Assembly: GCA_963932905.1 (NCBI GenBank)
Contig: CAWVRN010000018.1
Span: forward strand, 1-64,000
Length of the DNA: 64,000 nucleotides
Direction: 5' to 3'
Origin: an uncultured Bdellovibrio sp.
GTDB lineage: Bacteria > Bdellovibrionota > Bdellovibrionia > Bdellovibrionales > Bdellovibrionaceae
Shown one piece after another: positions 30,427-58,897 of this stretch. Numbering within the stretch: position 1 is the stretch's first letter; each line of letters opens with the position of its first letter. The position numbers and the translations under genes are program-made. The notes under the pieces are model-generated. The model worked only from the letters and a program-made list of their open reading frames with translations. It did not search any database and was not told the DNA's origin.

Positions 30427-31344
30427 CTATAAAATTGGCTGAGGTTTTAACAGTCCCACATTGCCCAGCTTAGATGGAAGTTCTTTGCCCATTTGGGCTT
30501 GTAGCCAAGGTGCAATTGACAAAATTTTCTTTAAATCGATACCTGTTTTTACACCCATATTTTGAAACATATATAGAACATCTTCGGTAGCTACGTTACC
30601 CGTTGCCGCCGGTGCGTAGGGACAACCACCAAGGCCACCGATGCTAGAATCGAAAACAGAAATGCCTTCGTTGTAAGCCGCAAGAATGTTGGCCAGAGCC
30701 TGTCCGCGCGTATCGTGAAAATGTCCCGCAATCGCTTTCGCCGGGATTTTCTTTTTCATTTTTCTGAACATAGATTGAACTTGTCCGACATGTGCTACGC
30801 CAATGGTATCACCTACCGAGATTTCAAACGCGCCCATTTTATAAAGTCTATGAGCCATATCGATAACTGTTTTTTCTGGAACATCGCCTTCGAACGGACA
30901 ACCAAAACATACACTTAAATACCCACGCACTTTGATTTTGTGTTTCTTCGCCATCGCGAATACAGGTTTGAATCGTTCGAAACTTTCTTCGATCGTGCAG
31001 TTGATATTTCGTTTTGAAAATGATTCGCTACAACCGGCAAACACAGCAACTTCGGCAGGTTTTAATTTCAACGCTTCTTCCATCCCACGTTCATTCGGCA
31101 CCAATACCGAATAATGAGGTTTCTTGTTCCATTTATATAAATTATCCAGAACTTGATCTGTGCCTTGCATTTGTGGAATTTTATCAAAACGTACAAACGC
31201 ACCGGCTTCGATACGATGAACACCAGCTTGTATGAGGCGTTTACCCAGTTCTACTTTTTGATCGACGCTGAGGATGACTTTTTCGTTTTGTAATCCATCA
31301 CGTAATCCCACTTCGACAATTTTAATATTTTTAGGTAATGCCAT
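30427..31344 (-). CDS. liuE: Hydroxymethylglutaryl-CoA lyase
   Basis: EVGLRDGLQNE, GDTIG, HFHDTRG, GLGGCPYAP, GNVATED. Confidence 0.95.
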   Translation of the reverse strand: MALPKNIKIVEVGLRDGLQNEKVILSVDQKVELGKRLIQAGVHRIEAGAFVRFDKIPQMQGTDQVLDNLYKWNKKPHYSVLVPNERGMEEALKLKPAEVAVFAGCSESFSKRNINCTIEESFERFKPVFAMAKKHKIKVRGYLSVCFGCPFEGDVPEKTVIDMAHRLYKMGAFEISVGDTIGVAHVGQVQSMFRKMKKKIPAKAIAGHFHDTRGQALANILAAYNEGISVFDSSIGGLGGCPYAPAATGNVATEDVLYMFQNMGVKTGIDLKKILSIAPWLQAQMGKELPSKLGNVGLLKPQPIL

Positions 31345-31353
31345 ATTGAACTC

Positions 31354-31740
31354 TTATGTTTCCTTAGTCGGTTCGATTTCCACGATCAACGCACCTAGCG
31401 CCACTTGATCTAGTTCTTTGAACGCCACTTTCTTGATTGTTCCGGCCATGTTTGATTTTAATGTGTATTCCATTTTCATGGCTTCCATCACCAGGACGCT
31501 TTCGCCAACAGCTACAGGATCACCCAACTTTTTGAACAGCTTAGTGATCTTACCTGGCATCGGTGCTAAAATTGTATTTGATTTAGCGTCTTTACCAGCC
31601 ACTTTGCCGCGACGACGGCCAGAAGTTTCCGCATCGAATACTAAAGTTTCGCCATTAAGGTGGATCCAGACTTTGTCGCCGACTTTTTCGGCCATGGCTT
31701 TGTAGACTTGACTGCCGATTTTCTTTTCAAATTTTTGCAT
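31354..31740 (-). CDS. Biotin carboxyl carrier subunit of methylcrotonyl-CoA carboxylase
   Basis: APMPGKI, EAMKME biotinylation motif; TAATG coupling to the upstream gene gives start 31740. Confidence 0.9.
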   Translation of the reverse strand: MQKFEKKIGSQVYKAMAEKVGDKVWIHLNGETLVFDAETSGRRRGKVAGKDAKSNTILAPMPGKITKLFKKLGDPVAVGESVLVMEAMKMEYTLKSNMAGTIKKVAFKELDQVALGALIVEIEPTKET

Positions 31741-33254
31741 TACCACATCCTCCACTGCTCAGACCATGGATTTTGGTACCCGCCATTTGTCGCCGTTGAT
31801 TTAACCGCCCACGCCGATTTACCCATTTGCTTTTTGATTTCATCCACAAAGGCATCGACTTCGGGTTCGCGACTTGGTGGCTTTAGCGGTTCAGAGAAAT
31901 ATTTACTAATAAACTGAGTTGTCATCGTCCCCGCGATAAATTCAGGATGCGACAAGATCGCTTTTAAATAAGGAATATTTGTGTGCACACCAAAAATGAC
32001 GGATTGATTTAAAACTTCGATCATTTTTTGAATCGCACGTGGACGTGATTCATCCCACACAATCACTTTAGCAATCATTGGATCGTAGAATGACGTGATG
32101 ACATCATCTTCTTCAAACCCATACTCAAAGCGGCGCCCAGGCCCTTCTGGAAAATGAACATGTCCTAATCTTCCTGTACTTGGCATTCCGCCTTCGTATG
32201 AATTTTCAGCATACACACGGCATTCGATACTGTGGCCTTGGAAAGATTTGTACTGATCTTCTGAAAATACGAAACTCTGACAGGCATTTAGGATTTGGGC
32301 TTTGACCAGATCAATTCCTAAAACCATTTCTGTTACCGGATGCTCGACTTGCAAACGTGTGTTCACTTCCAGCAAGAAAAATTCACCATCTTGAAATAAA
32401 AATTCAACTGTACCCGCACTACGATAGCCGGCTGTTTGCGCAATCAAAGTAGCGGCTTCGCCCATTTTTCGGCGTAGTTCAGGGGTCAATGACGGCGAGG
32501 TTGCTTCTTCGATAATTTTTTGATGGCGACGTTGAACAGAACATTCGCGTTCAAACAAATGTCTAACTTTTCCAATGGAATCACCGAACACTTGAAATTC
32601 AATATGTTTAGCACGATCCAGATACTTCTCTAAAAACACTTTGGAAGAACCAAACGCGGACAAGGATTCACGTTGCGCTGATTCGATACGTTCACGGGCT
32701 TCTGACGCTTGAGTGATTAGCTTCATTCCTCGACCGCCGCCGCCTGCTGCGGCTTTTACGATACAAGGATAACCAATACGAGCCGCTTCTTTAGATAACG
32801 TTTCTACCGTTTGATCATCGCCTTCGTAACCAGGAACTAACGGAATGCCGCATTTTTTTGCTAATTCTTTGCAATGAACTTTGTCGCCCAAACTGCGAAT
32901 GGCATTTTCAGAAGGGCCTACGAAGATCATTCCTGCATCGACGCAGGCTTTAGCGAAATCAGCATTTTCACTTAAGAAACCAAAACCAGGATGGATCGCA
33001 TCCGCGTTCTTAGCTTTAGCGCCTTGAATATTAGATTTAATATTTAAATAACTCTCTGCCGGAGTCGAACCACCAATACAGACTTTGTGATCAGCCATAC
33101 GGTAAGCTCTAGAATTTATATCGGCATCCGAGTGCAATAATACTGTTTCGATACCAAGCTCTTCACACGCTTTGATAATTCGAACGGCCACTTCGCCGCG
33201 ATTTGCGATCGCCAGGCGTTTAATAGCTAAATTGGATAGATCTGTCTTCTTCAA
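31740..33254 (-). CDS. Biotin carboxylase subunit of methylcrotonyl-CoA carboxylase
   Basis: ANRGEVA, HPGFGFLSEN, GGGGRGM, RECSVQRRHQK, NTRLQVEHPVTE, YDPMIAK; TTG start. Confidence 0.95.
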   Translation of the reverse strand: MKKTDLSNLAIKRLAIANRGEVAVRIIKACEELGIETVLLHSDADINSRAYRMADHKVCIGGSTPAESYLNIKSNIQGAKAKNADAIHPGFGFLSENADFAKACVDAGMIFVGPSENAIRSLGDKVHCKELAKKCGIPLVPGYEGDDQTVETLSKEAARIGYPCIVKAAAGGGGRGMKLITQASEARERIESAQRESLSAFGSSKVFLEKYLDRAKHIEFQVFGDSIGKVRHLFERECSVQRRHQKIIEEATSPSLTPELRRKMGEAATLIAQTAGYRSAGTVEFLFQDGEFFLLEVNTRLQVEHPVTEMVLGIDLVKAQILNACQSFVFSEDQYKSFQGHSIECRVYAENSYEGGMPSTGRLGHVHFPEGPGRRFEYGFEEDDVITSFYDPMIAKVIVWDESRPRAIQKMIEVLNQSVIFGVHTNIPYLKAILSHPEFIAGTMTTQFISKYFSEPLKPPSREPEVDAFVDEIKKQMGKSAWAVKSTATNGGYQNPWSEQWRMW

Positions 33255-33266
33255 AATCTGTCTCCC

Positions 33267-34040
33267 TTAGGCTTTCCAACTTGGTTTTCTATTTTCAAGA
33301 AAACCTTTGATACCCTCTTGCCCTTCGTTTGATACGCGAAGTTCAGAGATAAGTTTAGTCGTTACATCTTTATGTTGATTTGGATTTAGGTTGGCTAGTT
33401 CACGAAGTAGTTTTTTTGTGCGACGAACGGCCACGGGTCCGTTATCTTTGTACAAATGAAGGACACGTTGAAATTCTTTGGTGCCTTCCTCTTTGCTGGC
33501 AGCTAGATTTACTAAACCTAGTTGTTGCGCGTGAACGTCGGTGAACACTTCTGCTGATGTCATATAGTATTTAATGGCCGGGGTACATTTATCTAATACA
33601 AAGCTAGAAATAACCGCTGGCGCGATTCCTAGCTTCACTTCGCTGAAACAAAACTTAGTTCCCGTTTCCGCAACGACGTAATCACAACAGGCTACTAAAC
33701 CTAACGCGCCACCAAACACAGCACCATGAACATGAGCCACAATTGGTAAGTCCAAGTTCTTCATCGCCGCGAACATTTCGTATAATTTTTCAGAATCTTT
33801 CTTGTTTTCATCCAAAGAAAAATTCACCATCGATTTCATCCAGTTTAGATCGGCACCGGCGCAGAATGCTTTGCCTTCACCCGTTAAGCCCACTGCTTTC
33901 AAATCAGTACGTACTTGCAGTGCTAAAAATGTCTGCGTTAGTTCTTCGATCATTTCGCTATTGAACGCGTTTCTAACGTCAGGGCGATTTAATTTAATAA
34001 ATGCAATCTGATCTATTTCTGTGAATACAAGTGTCTTCAT
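33267..34040 (-). CDS. liuC: Enoyl-CoA hydratase family, probable methylglutaconyl-CoA hydratase
   Basis: LNRPDVRNAF, FCAGADLNWM, FSEVKLGIAPA; liu operon context. Confidence 0.88.
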   Translation of the reverse strand: MKTLVFTEIDQIAFIKLNRPDVRNAFNSEMIEELTQTFLALQVRTDLKAVGLTGEGKAFCAGADLNWMKSMVNFSLDENKKDSEKLYEMFAAMKNLDLPIVAHVHGAVFGGALGLVACCDYVVAETGTKFCFSEVKLGIAPAVISSFVLDKCTPAIKYYMTSAEVFTDVHAQQLGLVNLAASKEEGTKEFQRVLHLYKDNGPVAVRRTKKLLRELANLNPNQHKDVTTKLISELRVSNEGQEGIKGFLENRKPSWKA

Positions 34041-34046
34041 TTCATC

Positions 34047-35654
34047 CTACATTCTGAAAACGCCCTGCTTACGCTCGGGCCATTTCTTATTTAAACTTGC
34101 AGCAATACCTAAAGCCAACACACGACGTGTATCTTTAGGATCGATGATACCGTCATCCCAGATTCTAGACGTTGAAAAATACGCCGAACTTTCCGCTGCG
34201 TATTTATCTAGGATTGGTTTTTTGAAATCCGCTTGTTCTTGTTCCGACATCGTTACTTTTTTAAGAGCTAATTGATCTTTCTTCACTGTCAGCAACACAT
34301 TCGCAGCTTGTTCGCCGCCCATAACGGAAATGCGTGCGTTTGGCCACATCCACAATTGTCGTGGTTGATACGCGCGTCCGCACATCCCGTAATTACCCGC
34401 ACCATATGACCCGCCAATTACGACGGTGAATTTTGGAACGCTGGCATTACTTACTGCCATAACCATTTTCGCACCATGCTTGGCAATACCTTCATTTTCG
34501 TATTTTCTGCCAACCATAAAGCCAGTGATATTTTGCAAAAAGATCAGCGGAACTTGGCGCTGTTCACAGAGCTCGATAAAATGCGCTGCCTTCAACGCGC
34601 TTTCGCTGAACAACACGCCATTATTAGCGATAATACCGACGGGAAAACCCCAGATGTGTGCAAAACCAGTGACTAATGTTTTTCCATACAAAGGTTTAAA
34701 TTCGTGAAAATCAGATCCATCAACTAAACGCGCGATCACTTCACGAACATCGAAAGGGCGTTTTGAATCTTCAGGAATCAAACCATACAGTTCTTCCACT
34801 GGGTATTTTGGTTCTTGATAGGGCTGCTGATTAATTGGCATTTCACGACGTTTGTTTAAATGCTTAACGATTTCTTTTGTGATTTCCAAAGCGTCTTCAT
34901 CATTTTCTGCAAAATGATCTGTTACACCGCTAACTTCGCAGTGCACTTGTGCGCCGCCCAGATCCTGCGCGGAAACTTCTTCACCTGTGGCTGCTTTTAC
35001 TAACGGAGGTCCACCCAAGAAGATAGTTCCATTTTCTTTCACAATTACGTTTTCATCGCTCATGGAAGGCACGTAAGCGCCGCCGGCCGTGCACGAACCC
35101 ATAACCACTGAAATTTGCGAAATGTTTTCGGCAGACATCTGAGCTTGATTATAAAAAATACGACCAAAATGATCGCGATCAGGGAATACTTCAGACTGCA
35201 ATGGCAAGAAAGCGCCGCCGCTATCCACTAGGTAAATACATGGTAGACCATTTTCACGCGCAACTTCTTGCGCGCGAAGATGTTTTTTCACCGACAAAGG
35301 GAAATAGGTTCCACCTTTTACCGTCGCATCGTTCGCTACGATCATAACTTCCACACCAGAAACAACACCGATACCTGTCACAACACCGGCACCAGGTGCT
35401 TCGTTATCATAAACATCCCACGCTGCTAATGTTGAGAATTCTAGAAAACTGGTTCCTGGGTCGACCAAAAATTCAATACGTTCACGGGCTGATAATTTGC
35501 CGCGACTTTTGTGCTTCTTCAGTGCGTCCGCACCACCGCCCATTTTTACGGTATTAATACGGTTTTGCAGTTCTTCTACAAGACCCATCATAAATTTTTT
35601 GTTGGCCGCAAAATCACTGCCGGAAGAATCAATCTCTGTTTCAATAATAGCCAT
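34047..35654 (-). CDS. liuB: Methylcrotonyl-CoA carboxylase carboxyltransferase subunit
   Basis: [49 protein letters not shown] terminus. Confidence 0.95.
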
Positions 35655-41377: not shown

Positions 41378-42076
41378 CTAGTAACGTTCCAATTCAAACA
41401 CGATGTTGTAGATGTAGGCTGCACCCGATACGCTGATACGTAAATCAGATGAATTATAACCTACATAGTAACCGTATGAACCTGGATACAAGTAAACATC
41501 AGATCCTGATGTGTATTTTGCATCTAACAACTGACCGTTAGCAATCAATGTCACTGTTGCTGCTGAATCACCAGATACATCCACGCGGATATTTTTCAAA
41601 CGGTAACCAGAGTATCTATAACCTAGTAAACTATTTACGTAGAAGTTCTCGTTGTATACCCAACGATTTACGTACGAAGTTTTGTATTGGGTGTAATTTG
41701 GATAGCCTGGAGTTGGATAACTTGGGTAACCCGGACTTGGATACACTGGGCCTGGATAAGGAACAGGAATTGGGATTGGTATCGGACGAGGTGTTGGACG
41801 CGGAGTCGGTCTTGGAATTGGGCGTGGATCTGGTTGCGGTCGCGGAGACGGAACTGGAGTTGGTGTCGGTCGCGGGATCGGTCGCGGAGTTGGCGTTGGA
41901 GTCGGTCTAACGGGCTGTGGATTCCCCGGACGTGGCACAACGGCCGTTGCTTTGTTTGAGTCACCGCCTGGCACCACATAACCATAGGCAGTTTGGACAT
42001 TTAGTAATGATACTGTCATGATAGCGACAGTCGATACTAATGTCAGTTTAGTTGTTACCGTTTTAGTGTTGAACAT
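41378..42076 (-). CDS. Secreted Pro-rich protein with a C-terminal beta-sandwich-like domain
   Basis: Signal peptide, long (P-x)n linker, Tyr-rich beta C-terminal domain (GYRLKNIRVDV, LRISVSGAAYI). Confidence 0.75.
   Translation of the reverse strand: MFNTKTVTTKLTLVSTVAIMTVSLLNVQTAYGYVVPGGDSNKATAVVPRPGNPQPVRPTPTPTPRPIPRPTPTPVPSPRPQPDPRPIPRPTPRPTPRPIPIPIPVPYPGPVYPSPGYPSYPTPGYPNYTQYKTSYVNRWVYNENFYVNSLLGYRYSGYRLKNIRVDVSGDSAATVTLIANGQLLDAKYTSGSDVYLYPGSYGYYVGYNSSDLRISVSGAAYIYNIVFELERY
41705..41935 (-). repeat. Low-complexity Pro-x coding repeat (PRPTPTPRPIP..., PGYP)
   Basis: GC-rich imperfect tandem repeats within the 41378-42076 CDS. Confidence 0.7.
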
Positions 42077-42326: not shown

Positions 42327-43739
42327 ATGAAAAGATCTGCGTTGTTTTTGTTTTCGATTGTCATTTCTAGATCTTGGTCAATACTTGCTGAACCAACAAT
42401 CACCTGCCCAACAGATAAAAGTGGCAAATCATTAACCGATTGGCGTACCGCTGCAATTCAAAAGTTAGTAACTAGCAATGCTTCGTTTACTCCGTTCACT
42501 GAAGTTCAAAGTGATTTGAAAGAATGCTTTGGCGAAAAAGTTCCCAGTTGTATGAGCGATTTGAAATACTATGCTCATTATAAACCAAATCCAATTTCGT
42601 CGTATAACGTGGATGAAATCTATAATAAATCAATGGAACTGCAGTCCGAAAATTTCCTTCCAAAAGAACTCACCGTTTCAAATGTTGTTGGTGAAGTCAT
42701 AAAGGGGTACGTAAAAATCCCAGCAAATTTTCATGAACTTGCCAAAGAAAAAAACTGGCTAACAACATCCTACAAAACTCGCGAGCTAGGCGGCTTTGAT
42801 AGTTCGAACAATTTATTTATTATGGTTTTTCCATCTGAAAAACGCGACACCGTTTTACAATTAAGTGTGGCTAAAGATGCGAACCCGTTTGCTTCAGCTT
42901 TTGATCCAGTGATTCGTCCACATAACGGGAATATGACTCAAGGATTTGATATTTTAACGATGATCACGGTGGATAAAACAAAAAACCCTCCGGTCGCGCA
43001 ACTTAGAATTCTTCAAAAAGATCCCACTCAAGAAAACACATATTTTTGGAATCCTGCAACTACGAACACGTCAGGTGCCCGAGCGTGCATTAGCTGTCAT
43101 GCCTCTCCATTCCGCGCGATCAGCCCAGTGGGCTATAAATTTACGAATCATATCAAAACAGATTTTTTCAATGGCGAAGAAAAACCGATGGATGCCGAAC
43201 AAAAGGCTATGACTGATAAAATTAACGAAATTATGAATCGCCCCGGAGTTTCTTGGGGGTCCACTGAAAAAGATGGACGTGAAATTCGTTTCGGACAAGA
43301 CATCGATAGCCAACCATGGGGTTGGGCTCCACCCGACTCACCCACACGTAAAAAAGAATTCATCGAACAGTGCGCTTCGGAACGACAAGCCATCATAGGA
43401 TCATCTCGTGCTGGCGGTCACTATCGCGTGGAACTAAATCCAGATATTAATGCACCGATCAGCTGGGAAAAAATATCCAAAGCCATGAACTGCGTGTCCT
43501 GCCACAACGGCAAAAATCGTGGTGTGATCCATAATGAATTCTCGCCGAGTACAGTGGCATTCAAGATCGCCATCACTCGGGAAATGCCAGAATCTGACGA
43601 CCCAGAAAATCCACTTCCACCTGACTTAAATGCGGATGAACGAATGGCCCTTGTTTGGTGCTTGAAAAAAGAGCGCACCCAAGTCGCCCAAGCCTGGAAA
43701 GAAAGCGGCTGGTGGATGCAACGTAGCAAATGTAAGTAA
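42327..43739 (+). CDS. Secreted protein with two CxxCH motifs, putative diheme c-type cytochrome
   Basis: Signal peptide; CISCH and CVSCH; candidate distal ligand in REMP. Confidence 0.7.
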   Translation: MKRSALFLFSIVISRSWSILAEPTITCPTDKSGKSLTDWRTAAIQKLVTSNASFTPFTEVQSDLKECFGEKVPSCMSDLKYYAHYKPNPISSYNVDEIYNKSMELQSENFLPKELTVSNVVGEVIKGYVKIPANFHELAKEKNWLTTSYKTRELGGFDSSNNLFIMVFPSEKRDTVLQLSVAKDANPFASAFDPVIRPHNGNMTQGFDILTMITVDKTKNPPVAQLRILQKDPTQENTYFWNPATTNTSGARACISCHASPFRAISPVGYKFTNHIKTDFFNGEEKPMDAEQKAMTDKINEIMNRPGVSWGSTEKDGREIRFGQDIDSQPWGWAPPDSPTRKKEFIEQCASERQAIIGSSRAGGHYRVELNPDINAPISWEKISKAMNCVSCHNGKNRGVIHNEFSPSTVAFKIAITREMPESDDPENPLPPDLNADERMALVWCLKKERTQVAQAWKESGWWMQRSKCK

Positions 43740-45324: not shown

Positions 45325-47616
45325 CTATTTCTGAATTTTCAATTTATAGAACGTTTCGATGATCTGATCGAAATTAAAACCTTGGATGGCTAACTGGTTC
45401 GCAGCCATTAAATCCATGCCTCGTTCGTGGCCCTCGCCTCTTCCTATGAATTGTGCCTGATCGGAACCAATGGCAGTGATTGAATCGGGGCATGACTTTA
45501 ATTTGAAATAGGTTCTTAATTTTTCACACGGCATGGGAATTTTCATTCCCGAAATTTCAAAAGTAAATTTATCGCCGGTTTTGGTTCCTGAAAATTCCTC
45601 GGACACGGGCCTGTTCAGATAGCCGAATAGTTTTTGAATACTGACTGGTTCAGTCCATTCATCAGTGCCACCTAAAGAAAACTCGAGCCACGTTTTTGCT
45701 CCCAAATGGGATGAACCAATTTCAAGAATCAAATCATCGACCGACTTTTTCTGTGCCGCTGTTACCTGTTCGTAATTTAAATTAAAAGTCTGGCAGATGG
45801 TCGTATCGCAAATGGGCTGTTTTTTTGCGTTCCAAAAAGCCAAGTTGTTTTTAAAAACTAGCAACATGGCTTTTTTTAATTCTTGCCGAAAGCTACCAAC
45901 TTCCGAGAAAAATACGCTTCTTAAATAATGCCACTCACTGGTGTTTAAAACGATTTCCGATCCCAGGCGAGCGCGCGCATTTTTCTCACTAGGAGCTTCA
46001 TCCAAAACCGCCATCGGTGAATTTTTTTGAAATGTTAAGTCACCGTAGAGCTTTCTCGGTACTTGATCCTTTGCATGAACATCAAATGGGGCACCGGCGC
46101 AAGCTAGGCGAGTCTTCATGCCGGGCATTTTTTGAAAATCCAAATTTTCGATATTTGAAATAGGAATCCCATTTCTTAAAACGAGTGTGGGACAAGTCAC
46201 CCTAATGGCGTTCATCGGGAATCGCGATAACACTTGGACTCTAGCACGCGAATCTGGGTGAATTACATATTTTTCGATTTTACTTTTTAATTCTGCGAGT
46301 AAATCCGACGGACGATGTCCGGCACGATACAAAATCGCTATCTTCGCCGCCAATTCGGTATTAAACACAGCAGCCAAAAAACCCTTTTCAATCGATAAAT
46401 CCAACTGAGTGGTTGTTCCCGATTTCAAAGAAACTCCATGCTGCACAAACCAGGATGCGTCTTTAGATTCTGACACCGTTCCCGCCACTGGAGTTTGCTT
46501 TAACACCGCAATCGTACTTGGTTTAGTTTCCAGAATGTAATCGAAAATTTTTGCTAGATCCAGCAAATCCAATTTAATTGTTGGCCACAAACCTATGGCA
46601 TCCGCCATATTCAACCATTCGGGTTGGTAAGACGAATTCGTCAGGGTATTTAAAGTTTGAGTATAATTGAGCATTTCATCTGGCTTTACTTTGCTATCTA
46701 AGAAAAATCCATTGCAGGAAAAATTAAGCGCCCGCTTGTAGTTCCATTTTGTCCGCACTGTCTTTCCACATTCCCATTCAATCGTTTTTCTTGGGCTCTT
46801 TTCCATGGCTAAATCTTTAAAAAACGAAACGGCCAGAGGCTTTAGGGTTGATCCTACTGTTTGCTTCTTCTGCCAATTACCTTCGCCAAAGATCACTTCA
46901 TTCGCTAAGCTATCAAAAACTAAAAATCCGTAATCATTTGTATCGCTAGTATTGACCTGATTTCCCTGAATTCGATTGATAAATTCCGCCGCCAGCGTCG
47001 ACTGTTTTTTTAGAAACACGGGATCTTGGCATTGTTTGAAGATATCGCTAAACCAATTTTTTAACTCAGACTCCTGATCCTTTTTTACCAGCTCGTTAAC
47101 CAGACGAGCTACAGAGATAGCCTTGCTATTATTAAATGGTGAACTCTGTTTTAGCTCGCGAAAGGCGTCAGCTTTAGCAAATAGTTGATTCTGTCCGTAT
47201 AGCAATCTCAAATAGTCATCGCTACGCCAATAAGCAAATAGTTCCTGAACAAATGAGTCCGTTAAAGCAGGGCAATAGCGATTAAAAAATACGTGCGCAA
47301 TTTCGTGCTTCAACGTTACTCCGATATCTTTCTGAACCGTGTAGACGTTAAAATTAATTCGATTTTGGCGTGTCTGCGCTATGTGGTCAGCTGAAATCAA
47401 AGAGAAATCGATTTCTAATTCGTGGTCCGCGGGAACCATTTTCCAATACTGTTCCTCTGTAAACCAGAAATCATTTGCGGTCTTTTCTAAAGACGATTTT
47501 AAGATCGCCTTGTCCGCCGCTATATCACTAGCAAAGCGGACTTTGAGTTCAGCGTTACTGTTTAGATTCCACAGTAAACATGTTAGAGCGAGTGTAAGAA
47601 GCCTTTGTTTCATCAT
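45325..47616 (-). CDS. YfaQ/MagE-like exported protein: HExxH domain + PBP-like domain + SpoIID/LytB domain
   Basis: Signal peptide from MMKQRLL; HEIAH; GSTLK, SCN, KSGT; YLRSVFFSE, CDTTICQ, GEGHERGM; follows the A2M gene. Confidence 0.78.
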   Translation of the reverse strand: MMKQRLLTLALTCLLWNLNSNAELKVRFASDIAADKAILKSSLEKTANDFWFTEEQYWKMVPADHELEIDFSLISADHIAQTRQNRINFNVYTVQKDIGVTLKHEIAHVFFNRYCPALTDSFVQELFAYWRSDDYLRLLYGQNQLFAKADAFRELKQSSPFNNSKAISVARLVNELVKKDQESELKNWFSDIFKQCQDPVFLKKQSTLAAEFINRIQGNQVNTSDTNDYGFLVFDSLANEVIFGEGNWQKKQTVGSTLKPLAVSFFKDLAMEKSPRKTIEWECGKTVRTKWNYKRALNFSCNGFFLDSKVKPDEMLNYTQTLNTLTNSSYQPEWLNMADAIGLWPTIKLDLLDLAKIFDYILETKPSTIAVLKQTPVAGTVSESKDASWFVQHGVSLKSGTTTQLDLSIEKGFLAAVFNTELAAKIAILYRAGHRPSDLLAELKSKIEKYVIHPDSRARVQVLSRFPMNAIRVTCPTLVLRNGIPISNIENLDFQKMPGMKTRLACAGAPFDVHAKDQVPRKLYGDLTFQKNSPMAVLDEAPSEKNARARLGSEIVLNTSEWHYLRSVFFSEVGSFRQELKKAMLLVFKNNLAFWNAKKQPICDTTICQTFNLNYEQVTAAQKKSVDDLILEIGSSHLGAKTWLEFSLGGTDEWTEPVSIQKLFGYLNRPVSEEFSGTKTGDKFTFEISGMKIPMPCEKLRTYFKLKSCPDSITAIGSDQAQFIGRGEGHERGMDLMAANQLAIQGFNFDQIIETFYKLKIQK

Positions 47617-50600
47617 AAAAATCTTCAATTTTTGCGATCCCCGCATTGAATTCACCTGGGTATTGTACGCGGTACATGATACCAACTTGAGTTCCGTTGT
47701 CCATCCACCCACGCGAGAAATCAAAGAACCAACGTGTTTGGTGATTTAAAATCTCTCTTGTTTTTGTCGACGTCATCAGCGGTAAATTATAAGGGGATCC
47801 GCGATACACTTGGTCTTCCTGAATCGTTTCAAAACCCGCCGGTACGTCATTTGTGACTACATAGTAACGTGACTGCCAGAAATTTCTATCAGTCATGCGG
47901 TTGAATTTGATTTCACAGTACACAAGGTCGCCAACTTGCAATTTTTCGCTGGATTGGATTTCTTTCTTCTCGCCTTTTTCGTTTACTTTATAGTATTTGC
48001 GATCGATGTTCCATCCAGCTGCTTTTGATTTCAGACTACCATTTGGGGACAATTTAGAAACTTTCGCACGCAAAATCTGATTTTCCATCACAGAATTAAC
48101 AGAAATCTTGGCTTGATCGGCTAATAATTTGTTATTTTTAAATACAACGTTGTAGCCGGTTAGATGATTGCTAACCGTCACTTCTGTGTTAGGCACCAAT
48201 TTGTCATTTATAGTGACTTCTAACGTTTTAAGAATTTCTTTCTTAGAAGCTGTCGATTCCATATCTTTATTAATAATATCTACTAATGATGTCAGAGTTA
48301 CACCGTTGTCGAATGTAGATCCAAAATAAAATCCGTTGTAGTTCGCCAAGATATTTTTCTTAATCAACTTATTGATAGAATCTGTTACGTAAGTCACTTT
48401 TACAGCCGAACTGTTTTTTGATTTCGCACGAGCCACTTCGTTAGTAAAATCAGCCGCCAGAACAAGAGAGCGGTATCCTAATGCCATAGAGGACACTGCT
48501 TTACCTGGATAGGCCGCCCAACCGTTCTGAGCCTGCGGAGCAAAGTTACCATATTGAATTGGACTGGTTGTGTCTTTCATTTGCTCAAGTGATTTTTTAA
48601 CGAGCTCAACATTCGCATTCACTTCATTCGTGAATTCCGTTTTTGCAAATGAATGATTAGCTAGTGTCATCAAAAACAGCGCTCGCTCAAACAGAGTCCC
48701 ATTTTTAGCAACGTAATCATTTTGAGTTCTTAGCACGGCTTTAAGATCATTCGGTTTTCTTTCTATAATGTATTTTCTAACTAAAACAGACTCGATATAA
48801 GAAAGAACGATACCTTGCGGACTACCTGGCAAGATATTTTTCGTCGTCAGCCAATCATAAGTGACTCGGAAGTCATACAAGCTGACGTAGGTTACTCGTT
48901 CAGATAGAGCCAAATTCAACATCACAAGTAACGTCATATTTAAATCAGGCTCGCCAGAATCAGCAAACCATCCGAAACCACCCGTCTTAGACTGGAATTG
49001 TGACAATCGCCTGAATCCAATTCCCGCATTATCTGTAGCTGCGCGAAGAATTTTACCTTGTGCTTCAGTAAGCTTGGCCCCTTTGCTTTTGTAAGACTGA
49101 AGGACATCGCTAATTACTTTATTTGACAACGTCGTGTTTAGAGTCTGTTCTACGCAGCCATATGGATAGTGAACCATCCATTCCATGTTGCTAAATAGAA
49201 TGCTCGTGAAATCGTTATATACACTAAGCTCCAATCCTTGCGCTTTTTCATCTTTTTCTAAAGCTAACTTGAAAGAACTTGTTTCTGGGAAATAGTAATC
49301 GTTAACCAAAGTCGCCTTTGGTAAAATTCGAATTGAATCTTTAAATTCTAATTTGGCCTTATTGAATTCAAGTGTGCCGTTAAACGAAGTTACCGCTCCT
49401 CGGCCAACATCAGCCACTGAGAAATTCAGATTTTCTGAAACCTGCTGTTTAGGTTTTAAAGAAACATTTAAGTCTGTTTTTCCTGTAAAGCTGATAATTT
49501 CGTTGTTTTCAGGTTGAGCCGAATACTTGACCGCAGTTTCTTGGGTAATCTCGTTTCCAGTTATGTTAACGCGTATTCTAGATTTATCGGTGCTTCTTAA
49601 GAACGGTGGATAGCCAACTAACAGAGTCACTGGCAGTTGCGATTTAAATTGCGTGGTCGATTCACCGAATCGACCTTCTTTATCCACAACAACTGCGGTG
49701 ACACGCCAAATTGTTTGATTTCCTGGCATATTGAATTTAACTTCGACTTCGCCCGCTTCGTTAGTCACTAAGTTTGCTTTCCAATAAGCAGTGTCTTTAA
49801 TATCCATCGGTTTGGATTGGTTTTTGTTAGCGGCTAATACGTGATTAGGTTTAAACAATTTTGCGATTTGTTCCCCATATCCGTAACCTTGAAAATGCGA
49901 AGAATAGAACGACATTAAATTTAAACGCGTCATCGGATAAAAGAAATCACCTAACTTCGGTCTGAATTCGGGCTGCAAATCTAACACAGCCTGATCAACA
50001 ACCGCTAAAGCCACTTCGGCTTTTACCGGTTTTCCAGCGGAATTTGAAATTTTAAATTTGATCTTTTGTTCTGAACCTGGAATCACGTTATCTATTTTAC
50101 TAACCCACTGAACTTTAAGTTTCTTATCTGGGTCCATAATTTTAAATGGAGCGCGCTTTTCAATCCATCCACGCTCGGGATGAGCATAACTGACAACAAA
50201 ATAGATTTGGTTCCCGTATTCGCTTAAAACTTTCTCGTTAATCCAGAATGATCTGCCATTCACAGGAATCACTTGAGTTTTAAATATTTTATTTCCCGCT
50301 AGCGTTAAAAATACTTGGCCATTGTTAGAACCCGCGGCACCCCATTTGTCTGGCATCGCTACGAAAATCTTAATTGTTTCATTTTGTCCTACTTCTGATT
50401 GATTGGTTAGTAGTCGGATCTCATCATTGTTAACCGCACTCACTCCCGGAGTTTTTCCCACTAACACGATATCGGCCGAGGTTTTGTCAGGATTTCTCTT
50501 CTTATCCCACAAAGTAACTTCTGCGCGCATTTCACCGACTAAATTCGGATCATCTGGCAAGTCGACCTTAGCGATTCCTTTCGCGTTCGTTTTTATTTTT

Positions 50601-52396: not shown

Positions 52397-53842
52397 CTAC
52401 TTTAAAATTAAATTTTGATCTTTAGCTGAACCTTTAACTAAGTACTTTGGCAGCTGGTCTAATAATTTCTGACTCTTCGTTAACTCTTCTGGCATCGTGG
52501 GAGGCAGCTTCGCTTGTTTAGCCTTCGACAAATAGCCTTGTTCGATTTTCGATGACATCCATTTCCCAACGTCGGCAAAGAAGCTCATCGAGTTTTCTTG
52601 TAACGCTAATTCAGACGCCTTTAGTTCACTTCGATCTAAGATCGAAGGCAATTTGCGATCACACACATTTTGGATCTTTTGCAGAACGTCTTTAGATCGA
52701 CTGACAACAAGGGACTTGCCGCAAACTGGACGAGTAAAGACTTCTCCAAATTTTGTTTCAAAAACCTTTCCAATACCATCTAACTGAGCTTGGTTAATCG
52801 CGCCCGTTTCAATGATTAACGCGTTCTCGGCCTCTAATTTGTCGCCCACTTTAACCGGGATTTGCAGCAACACTGCGGCCGCTTGCTTCTGGAAATCCTT
52901 TGCACGCTTGGTGGACGTTAAAAAGTTCTTAACGCTATTGACCGTCATGGCACCATTCCAAATTTTAATATTTCCAATCACAAAGAAATGACTATCTGAA
53001 GGTAGAATTTTTAATAACTCGTTCGCCACTTTTTTATTCACAAAAATATTATCTTTATTTAAGCCCATCGCGATAGGTGCCAGGTCAAAACGGTTTTCGC
53101 CATTATTCCATTGGAAAGGAACTTTCATCGATTCACTCAAGCCAATTACTTTTTCTCTAACCATCATCAGGCCAGGAAATACCATCGACAAATTGACGTC
53201 GACTTCTAAATCAGAATTTATTTTAACTGGCTTACAATCGCGTGACATTGCGAATACTACTTTTGGGTCTTTACCAATTGAAAAACACGAACCGTCTTTC
53301 TTAACGGCCCACTTCTGAGCTTTGATTTCAATAAGGCTGATTTTACCAGTCGTACCATCAGACAAATTAATATCTTTGTCGTCACCCATTTTAAATAACT
53401 TTATTAGCTGATCGATCGCCTTAGATTCCGGACCACTTAAACCACTGACCGAAATGCCCCACGGACTTGATAGTCTAGGTTGTTGATAATAGAAAACCTG
53501 AACCGGACGATTCTTTAAAGCCGATTCATATACGTAATCAATCAAACGCCCTGACCAAGTGGAATCTTTGCTAGCAGAAAATTCGTCTGGTAGCGAAAAC
53601 AGAGTTGGGTACAAGTCATATAACAATCCATAGTATAATGGCGATTGTCTAAAATCCAAAAACCATTTGTTTTTGGATATAACATTGTATACGTGCTGCG
53701 AGTTTTTTACGGAGGCTACTAGCGAGGGTTTAAATGGCCGCTCCTTTGGCGCCGCGGTTTCTTCAGCCGCGAAACCAATGGCACCTGTTAAAAATGCGAT
53801 AGTCAGTGATGCTATTAATGCTATTTTACCCATGCGTTCCAC
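52397..53842 (-). CDS. Exported protein of the A2M operon (positional YfaA/MagB equivalent)
   Basis: Signal peptide; lies between the DUF1175-like and A2M genes; sequence similarity not verified. Confidence 0.6.
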   Translation of the reverse strand: MERMGKIALIASLTIAFLTGAIGFAAEETAAPKERPFKPSLVASVKNSQHVYNVISKNKWFLDFRQSPLYYGLLYDLYPTLFSLPDEFSASKDSTWSGRLIDYVYESALKNRPVQVFYYQQPRLSSPWGISVSGLSGPESKAIDQLIKLFKMGDDKDINLSDGTTGKISLIEIKAQKWAVKKDGSCFSIGKDPKVVFAMSRDCKPVKINSDLEVDVNLSMVFPGLMMVREKVIGLSESMKVPFQWNNGENRFDLAPIAMGLNKDNIFVNKKVANELLKILPSDSHFFVIGNIKIWNGAMTVNSVKNFLTSTKRAKDFQKQAAAVLLQIPVKVGDKLEAENALIIETGAINQAQLDGIGKVFETKFGEVFTRPVCGKSLVVSRSKDVLQKIQNVCDRKLPSILDRSELKASELALQENSMSFFADVGKWMSSKIEQGYLSKAKQAKLPPTMPEELTKSQKLLDQLPKYLVKGSAKDQNLILK

Positions 53843-54411
53843 CTATATACCCCTACGAAATTTTTATTATCTTGAGTTGGTTTCCAATCTGATTGTTCGG
53901 TACTCATTAAATCGCTCATCCACAGTTTTTTAACGCCACCAGTTTCATCGCGAGCCCCGTTGTGGTATGTGACTAACCACTTGCTTTGCTCCCAAGGTGA
54001 TTCCATCACCATCATTAAATGCCATTGGTCTTCTTTCTTTTGGCCGTCCCGACGAAAAACTAGAATATCTCCGGTCTTCATCGAATCTCCGGGGACGGTT
54101 GAAATTTTCGAAAAATTCTTAGCAACTAAAAGTTCGGCATTGGCATATGGAATTCTCTCACCGTCATTCCAAGAATTCCAAAGAGGACCTTTGGGCTTGA
54201 TAGCACTCTTATATACAAATCGCACAAACCCTGCGCAATCACGTTGCTGTGGTTCCCAACTAGCCGACGGCTTCTCTGACTGTTCCAGAGCCACTCGAAT
54301 AAGATTCATTTTATAATAAGATTGATCTTCGACTTTTTCCGCGACAATAGATTTGGTTTGGCAACCCATTACGCCGAAGAAAAGAAAACCCATTAACAGT
54401 TGTTTCGGCAT
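53821..54411 (-). CDS. YfaT/DUF1175-like lipoprotein (NlpC/P60-like Cys-His)
   Basis: Lipobox VMGC; QRDCAGFVRF, GDILVF, HLM, YHNG, NFVGVYR. Confidence 0.85.
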   Translation of the reverse strand: MPKQLLMGFLFFGVMGCQTKSIVAEKVEDQSYYKMNLIRVALEQSEKPSASWEPQQRDCAGFVRFVYKSAIKPKGPLWNSWNDGERIPYANAELLVAKNFSKISTVPGDSMKTGDILVFRRDGQKKEDQWHLMMVMESPWEQSKWLVTYHNGARDETGGVKKLWMSDLMSTEQSDWKPTQDNKNFVGVYRWNAWVK

Positions 54412-54415
54412 ACTG

Positions 54416-55297
54416 CTATTCAGTTCCTTTTCTAGTCAGTGGCGACTCTAGAACCCAGTCTGGCCAATCACCTTTCTTAGGTTTTATATCAACAGAGGGA
54501 ACATAGACACTGACCGTGTTGCCTTTTTGAATTTTTACGTAGGCTAACGTTACCGTTTCACCCGGAGTCACCAAAGGAACTTGGACACGTTTTTTAATTT
54601 CATTCGACGTCCCACCAAATAAAGTTAGATTGAGTGTGGACAACGTGTGAGCTTTATCACCGCTGGGCCAATAATTCGCATCGACACGATAGATTCCTAG
54701 CGGTGGTGATGAATGAGTATATAGATAGGGACCGTACCCCGGCTGATCGAAACTGCCACCTTGCTCATTCAGATAAAATTTTCCACCCGACTCTGAACTT
54801 GTATCGGCCCAGTAGATATGAACTGTTGGTTTCGCCAACGGATCAGCTTCGCCCATTTTTGGTTCATAAATATGTAAGTCTGTATAAACATTATCTGTGT
54901 CACTAGTAAGAATCGCCAAGAAAGGTAGATTGGGAATTTTTGCGTAAACTGATTTTTTTTCAGTAAATGTTCCGGCTTTATTTGTCGCTGATACCTCGAT
55001 GTAGTTCTTACCTTGAGTCACTGGAAACTTTCTTTTGAATTCCCCTTTTATTGTGCGAATTAAATACTTGTCGCCATTAATATTGATAGTGATCGGATCA
55101 ACTGTGTCGTCACTGACTTTTCCAGCAATCTCTAGCATACGGTCTACCGTCCAACCGGCCCTAGGTTTGTTTAACGTAATTGAAATTGGTTTCGTTGATT
55201 TTGAAATTTGCTTCCCAGACTGTCGCTCTTCAACAGCGGCCAGAGTACAAAGTTGAAACAAAAAAATCCCCATGAAAAATGCTGACTTAGAATTCAT
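54416..55297 (-). CDS. YfaP/DUF2135-like exported protein
   Basis: Ig-like N-terminal region, then LTSDTDNVYTDLHIYEP, GYGP, GIYRVDANYW. Confidence 0.8.
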   Translation of the reverse strand: MNSKSAFFMGIFLFQLCTLAAVEERQSGKQISKSTKPISITLNKPRAGWTVDRMLEIAGKVSDDTVDPITININGDKYLIRTIKGEFKRKFPVTQGKNYIEVSATNKAGTFTEKKSVYAKIPNLPFLAILTSDTDNVYTDLHIYEPKMGEADPLAKPTVHIYWADTSSESGGKFYLNEQGGSFDQPGYGPYLYTHSSPPLGIYRVDANYWPSGDKAHTLSTLNLTLFGGTSNEIKKRVQVPLVTPGETVTLAYVKIQKGNTVSVYVPSVDIKPKKGDWPDWVLESPLTRKGTE

Positions 55298-57613: not shown

Positions 57614-58897
57614 ATGAACGCATTAGGAAGACATATTTTAGTAGAGTTTACGGGTTGTAACGCTGACGTTTTAAACGACGTTTCAGCTATTGAAAAAAGC
57701 ATGATCGACGCAGCCAAAATTGCGGGCGCGACAGTCATCAGCTCCAACTTTCACCATTTTTCTCCGTGGGGAGTATCTGGAGTTGTTGTTATTCAGGAAA
57801 GTCATTTGGCTATTCATACATGGCCTGAATATCGTTACGCTTCTGTTGATTTATTCACTTGCGGTGAAACGGTAGATCCTTGGGTGTCTTTTGAGCATTT
57901 AAAACAAGCTCTAGAAGCGACGTATTCGGCGATCGAATTAAACCGCGGTGCTTTGAACATTATCAAAAAATCAGATTATAAACCTACAAACGTTCGTGAT
58001 TCATCTAATCCTATCGACACAAAAAATTTCAAAATCGCGCGTAACGTTTGGTTTACCGACAAAGACGACATGCAGGCGCTATCACTTCGTTACACTGGCG
58101 ATGTGTTATTCAACGAAACAACAGATTTCCAACAAGTTCGTGTATTCGATACTTTAGCTTACGGAAAAATGCTGGCGATCAATAACATGGTAATGTGCAC
58201 CGAACGTGACGAATTCCATTATCACGAAATGATCGTTCACCCGGTTTCTCAATTAAGCAAAAATTTGAAAAACGTTTTAGTTATCGGTGGTGGTGACGGC
58301 GGAACAATTCGCGAGTTATTTAAATATAGCTCGATCGAAAAAGTAACAATGGTTGAAATAGACGAAGCTGTTGTGAACGCCTCTAAAAAGCATTTACCTA
58401 CGTTAAGCACTGAATTCTCGAATCCAAAGTTAAATTTGATCATTGGTGATGGTATCGAACATGTTCGTAATGCCAAAGCAGGAACGTACGACCTAGTTAT
58501 CGTCGATGGATCCGATCCAGTGGGACCGGCAGAAGGTCTATTTACTAAGGCGTTCTATACTGACTGCGCGCGCGTATTAACGGACGACGGGATGCTAGTC
58601 ACTCAAGGTGAATCGCCAATGTTCCACACAAATACATTCGTTGAATTAAATCACTGCTTAAAAGACATTTTTGGAATACAGAAGGTTCACACGATGTTAT
58701 TCCACGCTACGACGTATCCGTCTGGCATGTGGTCATTGATGATGGCTTCTAAAAAAGCAATCAATCCTAAAACAGATATCGACGTGGCCAAGGCAGCGTC
58801 GTTCGTAAAACAAAAAAACTTAAAATACTATAACGAAGAACTTCATGCGGCCTCTTTCTGCCTGCCAAACTTCGTTAAAAACCTACTCGAAAAGTAG
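57614..58897 (+). CDS. S-adenosylmethionine decarboxylase - spermidine synthase fusion (SpeD-SpeE)
   Basis: N-terminal [19 protein letters not shown]-terminal [25 protein letters not shown]. Confidence 0.93.

Follow-up and report, generated by a model that had tools for sequence, protein, structure and literature searches.

Domain organisation and conservation of the protein

The window analysed here is a 64,000-nucleotide stretch of the genome of an uncultured Bdellovibrio sp. (assembly GCA_963932905.1, contig CAWVRN010000018.1, positions 1 to 64,000). On its minus strand, at 45325–47616, lies an open reading frame (ORF) of 763 amino acids (aa) with zero internal stop codons, which occupies the YfaQ/MagE position in an alpha-2-macroglobulin operon of the yfa/mag type; its product is predicted to combine a signal-like peptide, a gluzincin, a penicillin-binding protein (PBP)-fold domain and a SpoIID module (Table 1). 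The first-pass annotation of this DNA had described one exported polypeptide with zincin, PBP and SpoIID motifs, and all of the motifs were located in the translation in that order: HEIAH (104–108), FVQE with E125, STLK (256–259), SCN (300–302), KSGT (398–401), YLRSVFFSE (564–572), CDTTICQ (603–609) and GEGH (727–730).

The bare PBP triad pattern is weak evidence, as 258 of 5000 shuffled versions of the protein contain it and so do 39 of the 590 ORFs of 500–1100 aa in the same genome; HExxH followed by the triad in order occurred in 1 of 5000 shuffles and in two of these 590 ORFs. Conservation and fold, rather than such patterns, settle whether the domains are real. A search for homologues among 50%-identity representatives gave 167 matches, and the alignment comprises all 109 proteins of at least 670 aa from the 150 of these that were listed and from a second homologue search, one copy of the query and shorter fragments being left out; the full-length homologues come mostly from myxobacteria and Bdellovibrionota. 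Although the mean column identity is 22% in the matching 106-row alignment, the catalytic residues of all three modules are conserved: H104, E105, H108, E125, S256, K259, S300, K398 and G400, as well as E572, C603, C608 and H730 of the SpoIID module, are invariant (109/109), in a set that was gathered by similarity to the query and cannot show relatives that lost features and drifted.

None of the three domains was detected by Pfam in the single sequence, and phmmer against PDB with the single sequence missed the zincin and the PBP domain, so that profiles and models were required. The full-length AlphaFold2 model has a predicted local distance difference test (pLDDT) value of 83.7. Structure prediction and fold searches matched a gluzincin, a PBP transpeptidase and SpoIID; since whole-model VIA searches were filled by the PBP domain, the evidence for the SpoIID fold comes from Foldseek and the profile.

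Table 1. Features of the 763-aa gene and of its operon, in coordinates of the window
Feature	Coordinates	Strand	Basis
YfaQ/MagE-family gene, 763 aa: signal-like peptide, predicted gluzincin, PBP-fold domain, SpoIID module	45325..47616	-	translation, models, alignment
Signal-peptide-like residues 1–22	47551..47616	-	judged by eye
Predicted gluzincin (MA-clan zinc peptidase) domain, residues 23–222	46951..47550	-	model, fold search
HEIAH zinc motif (H104, E105, H108)	47293..47307	-	109/109 homologues
E125, predicted third zinc ligand on next helix	47242..47244	-	109/109 homologues; helix in model
Compact PBP/penicilloyl-serine transferase domain, residues 223–455	46252..46950	-	fold search
SxxK (S256, K259), helix start	46840..46851	-	model, alignment
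SxN (SCN 300–302), between two helices	46711..46719	-	model; its Cys co-occurs with C283
K(S/T)G (398–400), on strand	46417..46425	-	model, alignment
SpoIID/LytB module, residues 456–763	45328..46251	-	NCBIfam, Foldseek, profile
E572, in register with catalytic E101 of C. difficile SpoIID	45901..45903	-	profile alignment, 109/109
CDTTIC 603–608, two Cys of SpoIID zinc site	45793..45810	-	profile alignment
Alpha-2-macroglobulin (YfaS/MagD position), 1613 aa	47555..52396	-	Pfam MG2, A2M_BRD, A2M, TED, bMG10
CVEQ thioester motif of macroglobulin (C1081)	49145..49156	-	sequence, related loci
481-aa gene, YfaA/MagB slot	52397..53842	-	position only
YfaT/MagC gene	53821..54411	-	Pfam DUF1175 E 2.7e-33; weak NLPC_P60 E 0.002; E. 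coli YfaT E 7e-12
YfaP/MagA-F like gene (DUF2135)	54416..55297	-	Pfam; E. coli YfaP E 6e-8

Residues 225–455 are predicted to adopt the penicilloyl-serine transferase fold, matching class B PBP transpeptidase domains (Z 21.4, root-mean-square deviation (rmsd) 2.5, 217 residues aligned) ahead of class D beta-lactamases and the BlaR1/MecR1 sensors (Z 17–19). In the secondary structure of the model, the helix, loop and strand placement of the three motifs is that of PBPs, and the family profile puts them in register with M. tuberculosis PBPA (3un7) and C. difficile PBP3 (7rd0), which bears out, as far as a model can, the earlier assignment of SxxK, SxN and KSG to a PBP active site. Fold (Z 21), motif order and motif placement are shared with class B PBPs such as E. 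faecium PBP5, B. subtilis PBP3 and C. difficile PBP2, PBP3 and SpoVD, but the domain described here is about 90 residues shorter, has neither a pedestal domain nor a membrane anchor, and is fused to SpoIID instead of being paired with a polymerase. By analogy only, the order of modules, with an HExxH protease at the N-terminus and then a compact PBP-fold domain, resembles BlaR1/MecR1, whereas our protein is soluble and carries a SpoIID module; the protease of BlaR1 is membrane-embedded, on the other side of the membrane. An SCN motif with an upstream Cys is also found in the zinc/redox PBPs of PMC9334274, although only two of the four metal-site ligands are present here. Motif 2 is SDT-like in 28 of the 109 homologues, and such motifs characterise one well-separated subfamily on a FastTree tree.

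Modelled alone with AlphaFold2, residues 22–222 reached a pLDDT of 94.9. The VIA search gave a whole-domain match to tricorn factor F3 (Z 11.4, rmsd 3.9, 191 aligned), and nearly all of its top rows were gluzincins, with aminopeptidases, collagenases and thermolysin at Z 9–11; the top match of an Atlas search was Peptidase_MA_2 (0.93). Foldseek returned nothing at E<=0.001 for this model, its top rows nevertheless being gluzincins. The predicted thermolysin-like fold, HExxH and downstream Glu together agree with the definition of a gluzincin, and zinc binding and peptidase activity are predicted. HExxH with a Glu on the next helix is shared with the gluzincins of clan MA (M1 aminopeptidases, M4 thermolysin, M9 collagenases, Peptidase_MA_2), from which the domain differs in its low identity (8–13%), the lack of a family match and a His-to-Glu spacing of 16 intervening residues. 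The genome also encodes a stand-alone 227-aa HExxH...NEG-like peptidase (G000:C29:10263-10943) related to the N-terminal zincin profile (E 4e-5), and similar short matches occur in other Bdellovibrionota genomes.

For the C-terminal module, Foldseek found C. difficile SpoIID (5i1t, E 8.6e-6) and the profile found B. anthracis SpoIID (4rwr, E 1.4e-10). Family cut-offs were missed, with 23.4 bits against a threshold of 83.3 for NCBIfam TIGR02669 and no match to Pfam SpoIID, whose cut-off was reached by 5 of 30 homologues. The fold, the catalytic Glu in register and the GH.G motif are those of SpoIID/LytB lytic transglycosylases, and in the profile alignment C603 and C608 fall on the zinc ligands C140 and C146 of the C. 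difficile enzyme (residue roles, including that of E101, from PMC6221140). Not every SpoIID/LytB protein has the H-C-H-C zinc site of the C. difficile type, and in this clade it is reduced to the two Cys: both zinc His are present in 85 of 109 homologues, where the site is full, and both are absent in 23, this protein included, with one discordant case. The label changes seven times on the FastTree tree, in which many long branches meet, and we infer that homologues may have swapped a zinc site for a disulfide or the reverse. Three myxobacterial-type loci (L069, L073 and L081) carry the SpoIID module alone, adjoined by a DnaC/IstB-like gene (by eye) and with no macroglobulin.

Comparison with E. 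coli YfaQ and P. aeruginosa MagE

E. coli YfaQ (b2226, annotated as 'tandem DUF2300') and P. aeruginosa MagE (PA4488, COG5445) occupy the same slot directly after the macroglobulin; the link between these two is based on operon position and on Pseudomonas DUF2300 proteins. A set of 93 full-length proteins of the E. coli/Pseudomonas type was assembled from E. coli YfaQ and 92 of 120 listed proteins, those outside 520–560 aa being dropped. YfaQ of E. coli contains SLWK, SCG and KTW motifs, the SpoIID Glu and a C-terminal HEYLH followed by Glu, and S60, K63, S108, K195, W197, E334, H520, E521 and H524 are identical in 93/93 proteins of the type, while the downstream zincin Glu is found in 24/24 rows of a wider E. 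coli-type alignment. Homology of the 763-aa protein to YfaQ was detected with domain profiles for the PBP part (E 9e-9) and the SpoIID part (E 1e-5, catalytic Glu aligned), and hhalign against the YfaQ type gave 92.9% and 68.6%, respectively.

The three modules are thus, judging from motifs and profiles, the norm of the YfaQ/MagE family. The first-pass annotation regarded the N-terminal zincin as an addition to the usual YfaQ layout; this view, and with it the idea of a new acquisition, is rejected in view of the C-terminal HExxH...E of the E. coli/Pseudomonas type. Its own caveat, that the architecture might be the norm across YfaQ homologues, turned out to hold for module content but not for module order or active-site completeness. 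What sets the variant apart is the zincin-first order, a full-size zincin (about 200 aa and N-terminal, against about 110 aa and C-terminal in YfaQ) and an intact PBP triad, canonical here (SCN, K[ST]G) and SCG, KT[WFY] in the YfaQ type. The GH.GM motif and the Cys pair of SpoIID are kept here, in contrast to YfaQ, and the protein is longer (763 versus 549 aa). DUF2300 (PF10062), present in two copies in YfaQ, had no match in the protein, its genome or 30 homologues, and the protein is therefore best called a relative of YfaQ, not a DUF2300 member. On the present comparison it would work like YfaQ/MagE and descend with them, as a reordered, better-preserved relative.

In hhalign comparisons of the N-terminal with the E. 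coli-type zincin, HExxH and Glu align at E 2.7e-5 (74%), or 1e-3 (22%) in reverse, but the E. coli-type profile ranks the 763-aa protein only third in its own genome (E 3.1), and the stand-alone 227-aa zincin, located on another contig, fits the N-terminal profile better. An Atlas search with the E. coli-type C-terminal module yielded one row, at 0.75, which is a lead only. The zincin may have moved by circular permutation of the protein, or zincins may have been recruited independently.

Five loci (L132-L136) contain stand-alone ORFs of 134–237 aa (stop to stop) that correspond to the E. coli-type C-terminal HExxH module alone and have signal-like N-termini, a family of free mini-zincins. One Bdellovibrionota genome (L082/L147, G173:C23) has an E. 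coli-order YfaQ operon instead, with the macroglobulin split into two ORFs.

Transpeptidase-like and SpoIID-like halves of YfaQ have been predicted in a preprint (bioRxiv 10.1101/2025.02.11.637708). The family, two of the three domains and an envelope role are therefore already in print, while our literature search found neither a zinc-peptidase module in YfaQ/MagE nor the zincin-first order; subscription papers were outside its coverage, and the supplements of this preprint may mention it.

The operon and its macroglobulin

The gene set of the operon is that of E. coli yfaA-T-S-Q-P and P. aeruginosa magA-F, with yfaP first here and not last, and the G+C content of the operon is the same as that of the genome (0.407). 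The 481-aa gene in the YfaA/MagB slot had no Pfam match and no tblastn match from E. coli YfaA. Location in the YfaQ slot agrees with the first-pass description of the protein as the partner of the macroglobulin. The accompanying parallel with yfhM-type macroglobulins and PBP1C does not apply: PBP1C is absent from the operon, no TIGR02073 match above the cut-off was found anywhere in the genome, and the operon is of the yfaS/mag type, not of the yfhM-PBP1C type (type I). Promoter and terminator scans gave results at chance level.

Over its first 62 nt (47555–47616), which encode almost all of the signal-like peptide, the gene shares its sequence with the 3' end of the macroglobulin gene, read in a different frame. 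The stop codon of the macroglobulin gene precedes HExxH by 197–254 nt in 14 of 15 Bdellovibrionota loci; in most non-Bdellovibrionota loci this distance is about 270–370 nt, and the genes abut. The overlapping start and the short distance in Bdellovibrionota suggest tight translational coupling with the macroglobulin. The protein is likely exported to the periplasm, to judge by its signal-like N-terminus (assessed by eye) and its paired conserved cysteines. A lipoprotein or membrane anchor is unsupported, as C13 is not conserved and the highest 19-residue hydropathy is 1.36.

Macroglobulins of six-gene operons (type II) have been described as devoid of the CxEQ thioester (PMC5764988, PMC3735191). 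The operon studied here departs from the type II definition of PMC5764988, CVEQ being present, and the thioester Cys is kept in all 64 related loci that cover the site. Three of four E. coli-order operons examined as a control also keep the thioester, the fourth and E. coli YfaS being without it. The thioester rule separating types I and II in these two papers does not, therefore, hold generally, and retention of the thioester as a peculiarity of the zincin-first variant is ruled out by the same control. A second macroglobulin in the genome (1978 aa, G000:C10:20705-26638), with no adjoining PBP1C or yfa genes, likewise keeps CxEQ at the thioester position (YPYSCSEQ).

Distribution

By record name, the best 80 of 181 matching genome loci comprise 52 from myxobacteria, 18 from Bdellovibrionota and 10 that are other or vague, including records named Methylocucumis and Syntrophobacteraceae. 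Archangium, Corallococcus and Myxococcus species are among the myxobacterial carriers. The closest relatives share 50–78% identity and come under the record names Bdellovibrionaceae, Pseudobdellovibrionaceae or Bdellovibrio sp. Among 201 genomes of the same phylum, 4 gave a full-length match, as did 7 of 10 of the same genus; the gene was not found in the 15 other genera of the family that were searched (0/15). In the phylum of a Myxococcus record, 28 of 121 genomes matched at E<=1e-60, 21 of them over the full length.

A macroglobulin match accompanies the gene in 66 of these best 80 loci, and the yfaP-T-A-S-Q order is conserved. Among the 14 loci without such a match, eight are cut by a contig end, three have the SpoIID part only, and three are full-length (L021, L027 and L063) with no macroglobulin within 5.7–9.7 kb upstream. 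Twenty metagenome loci of the SDT subfamily with at least 1.5 kb of upstream sequence divide evenly into ten with a macroglobulin and ten with none; an intact three-module protein with no macroglobulin gene upstream is also encoded by eight metagenome loci, partly near-duplicates, that extend at least 6.5 kb in that direction. The gene is therefore accessory, usually but not always tied to a macroglobulin, and the intact copies without one upstream suggest that the protein has a job of its own.

Proposed function and alternative explanations

The function we favour, with roughly even credence, is periplasmic repair of the cell's own peptidoglycan alongside the macroglobulin. In such a scheme, the PBP domain would acylate D-Ala-D-Ala stems through S256 and trim or re-link them, while the SpoIID module would use E572 to cut glycan strands stripped of peptides, as SpoIID does, and so remove the damaged wall that amidases or attacking effectors leave behind. 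The gluzincin would cut a peptide, either in wall stems or in a protein partner, and the thioester-bearing macroglobulin would capture the intruding enzyme. Only glycan free of peptides is a substrate of SpoIID (PMC6221140, PMC6934232), which would give a reason for fusing it to peptidases. Deletion of yfaQ in E. coli produces wider cells and clusters with mepK, mepS and nlpI deletions (bioRxiv 10.1101/2025.02.11.637708), and P. aeruginosa magD protects against the wall-targeting type VI secretion system (T6SS) effectors VgrG3 and Tae1 (PMC12663445). It is this phenotype and this protection, taken with the substrate rule of SpoIID, that make own-wall repair the favoured explanation. The first-pass annotation proposed a peptidoglycan-remodelling enzyme acting on its own wall or that of prey: a wall role fits the E. 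coli yfaQ and Pseudomonas mag literature, while action on prey wall is poorly supported.

Several points weigh against own-wall repair. The three activities are predicted from folds and conserved residues, and convergence of S256, K259, S300 and K398 in space is likewise expected only from fold and register. Of the 109 homologues, only 81 retain the Asn of SxN. In the SpoIID module, the Gln and Arg of KAQ..AART and the Gln of GMSQ, positions that are conserved and important in SpoIID, are changed. We know of no gluzincin or DD-peptidase that removes whole stems, so the substrate of SpoIID must come from elsewhere, perhaps from YfaT/MagC. This clade lacks both zinc His, and H145A inactivates C. 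difficile SpoIID in vitro (PMC6221140). T6SS protection was demonstrated for magD and not for magE (PMC12663445), and MagE of P. aeruginosa was recovered from the cytoplasmic fraction and failed to co-purify with the Mag complex (PMC3735191).

One alternative, rather unlikely in our estimate, is that the zincin processes the macroglobulin or the Mag complex and that the other two domains, PBP and SpoIID, serve chiefly as sensors of wall fragments or as a wall anchor, which would make the protein a soluble parallel to BlaR1/MecR1 with their PBP-fold sensor and HExxH protease. Deletion of magE strongly changes the amount of MagD and gives higher-mass unprocessed forms (PMC5764988), an effect for which the invariant HExxH...E of the E. 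coli and Pseudomonas YfaQ types would be a direct candidate, although text and legend of that paper disagree on the mutants that lose the 100-kDa form, and MagE was not co-purified with MagD (PMC3735191). HExxH...E is also the sole site intact in both domain orders, the PBP site degenerating to SCG/KTW in the E. coli and Pseudomonas types. The sensor domains of MecR1 and BlaR1 do appear among the fold matches (Z 17.7 and 17.2), but BlaR1 scores lower than class B PBPs, and the zincin described here lacks membrane helices; all three sites are retained in copies that have no macroglobulin next to them, which argues against processing as the sole role. Unlikely, too, is a partner that binds peptidoglycan and has only part of its sites active, for example with a SpoIID groove that binds glycan uncut, or with a C283-C301 pair that shuts the PBP site until reduced. 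Pointing this way are the changed substrate-side positions of SpoIID and the loss of both zinc His in 23/109 homologues, the SDT-like motif 2 in 28/109, the KT(W/F/Y) of all E. coli-type proteins seen, and the zinc-ligand or redox role that the SCN Cys plays in PBPs of C. difficile and in SpoVD of B. subtilis (PMC9334274); yet without catalysis it is difficult to account for the invariance of E572, H730, S256, K259, S300, K398 and G400 in 109/109 homologues.

Secretion of the protein as a predatory enzyme that breaches the cell walls of prey seems improbable. Myxobacteria and Bdellovibrionota are rich in predators, and they account by name for 70 of the best 80 loci (52 and 18), and three lytic-type folds in a single chain would suit such a task. 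The gene lies, however, within an envelope-defence operon and has a reordered form in E. coli; it is full-length in only 4/201 genomes of its phylum and 7/10 of its genus, with 0/15 in the other family genera, and relatives occur in the records named Methylocucumis and Syntrophobacteraceae. Least probable, and very much so, is a serine domain acting as a beta-lactam trap or class D-like beta-lactamase against the antibiotics of neighbours. Its size of about 230 aa is that of class D enzymes, which match at Z 17–19, and weak profile matches to BlaR1 and oxacillinases were obtained, but class B transpeptidases give the better score (Z 21), motif 2 reads SCN in place of the SxV/I of class D beta-lactamases, and the fusion to SpoIID argues for a wall substrate.

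Returning to own-wall repair, a more far-reaching version may be sketched tentatively, as one that is more likely wrong than right: YfaQ/MagE proteins would be three-enzyme machines for wall excision and repair, and the present lineage would be fully armed, with a thioester macroglobulin, active PBP, lytic transglycosylase and gluzincin sites, and a gluzincin that also matures the macroglobulin. If so, the protein would take the place that PBP1C has in type I operons, and the blunting of wall-targeting T6SS attacks by mag would be explained. Among the partners of bacterial macroglobulins, MagE has been described as a chaperone or a signal-peptide factor (PMC5764988), and for YfaQ an enzymatic role at the wall has been considered likely (bioRxiv 10.1101/2025.02.11.637708). 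PBP, lytic transglycosylase and zinc-peptidase activities in a single chain would be unusual among wall enzymes, and the variant with canonical sites offers named residues (E105, S256, E572) by which each predicted activity could be separately assayed and removed.

Other genes in the window

Elsewhere in the window, 57614–58897 encodes a 427-aa fusion of S-adenosylmethionine decarboxylase with spermidine synthase, and a leucine/methylcrotonyl-CoA catabolic cluster at 30427–35654, named by eye from the translations, comprises genes for a carboxyltransferase, hydratase, biotin carboxylase, biotin carrier and HMG-CoA lyase. Two secreted-looking proteins are also encoded: one of 470 aa (42327–43739) with two CxxCH haem-binding motifs and sub-threshold cytochrome matches only, and one of 232 aa (41378–42076), with no convincing Pfam family, in which a long Pro/Arg/Thr-rich repeat is followed by a Tyr-rich beta domain.

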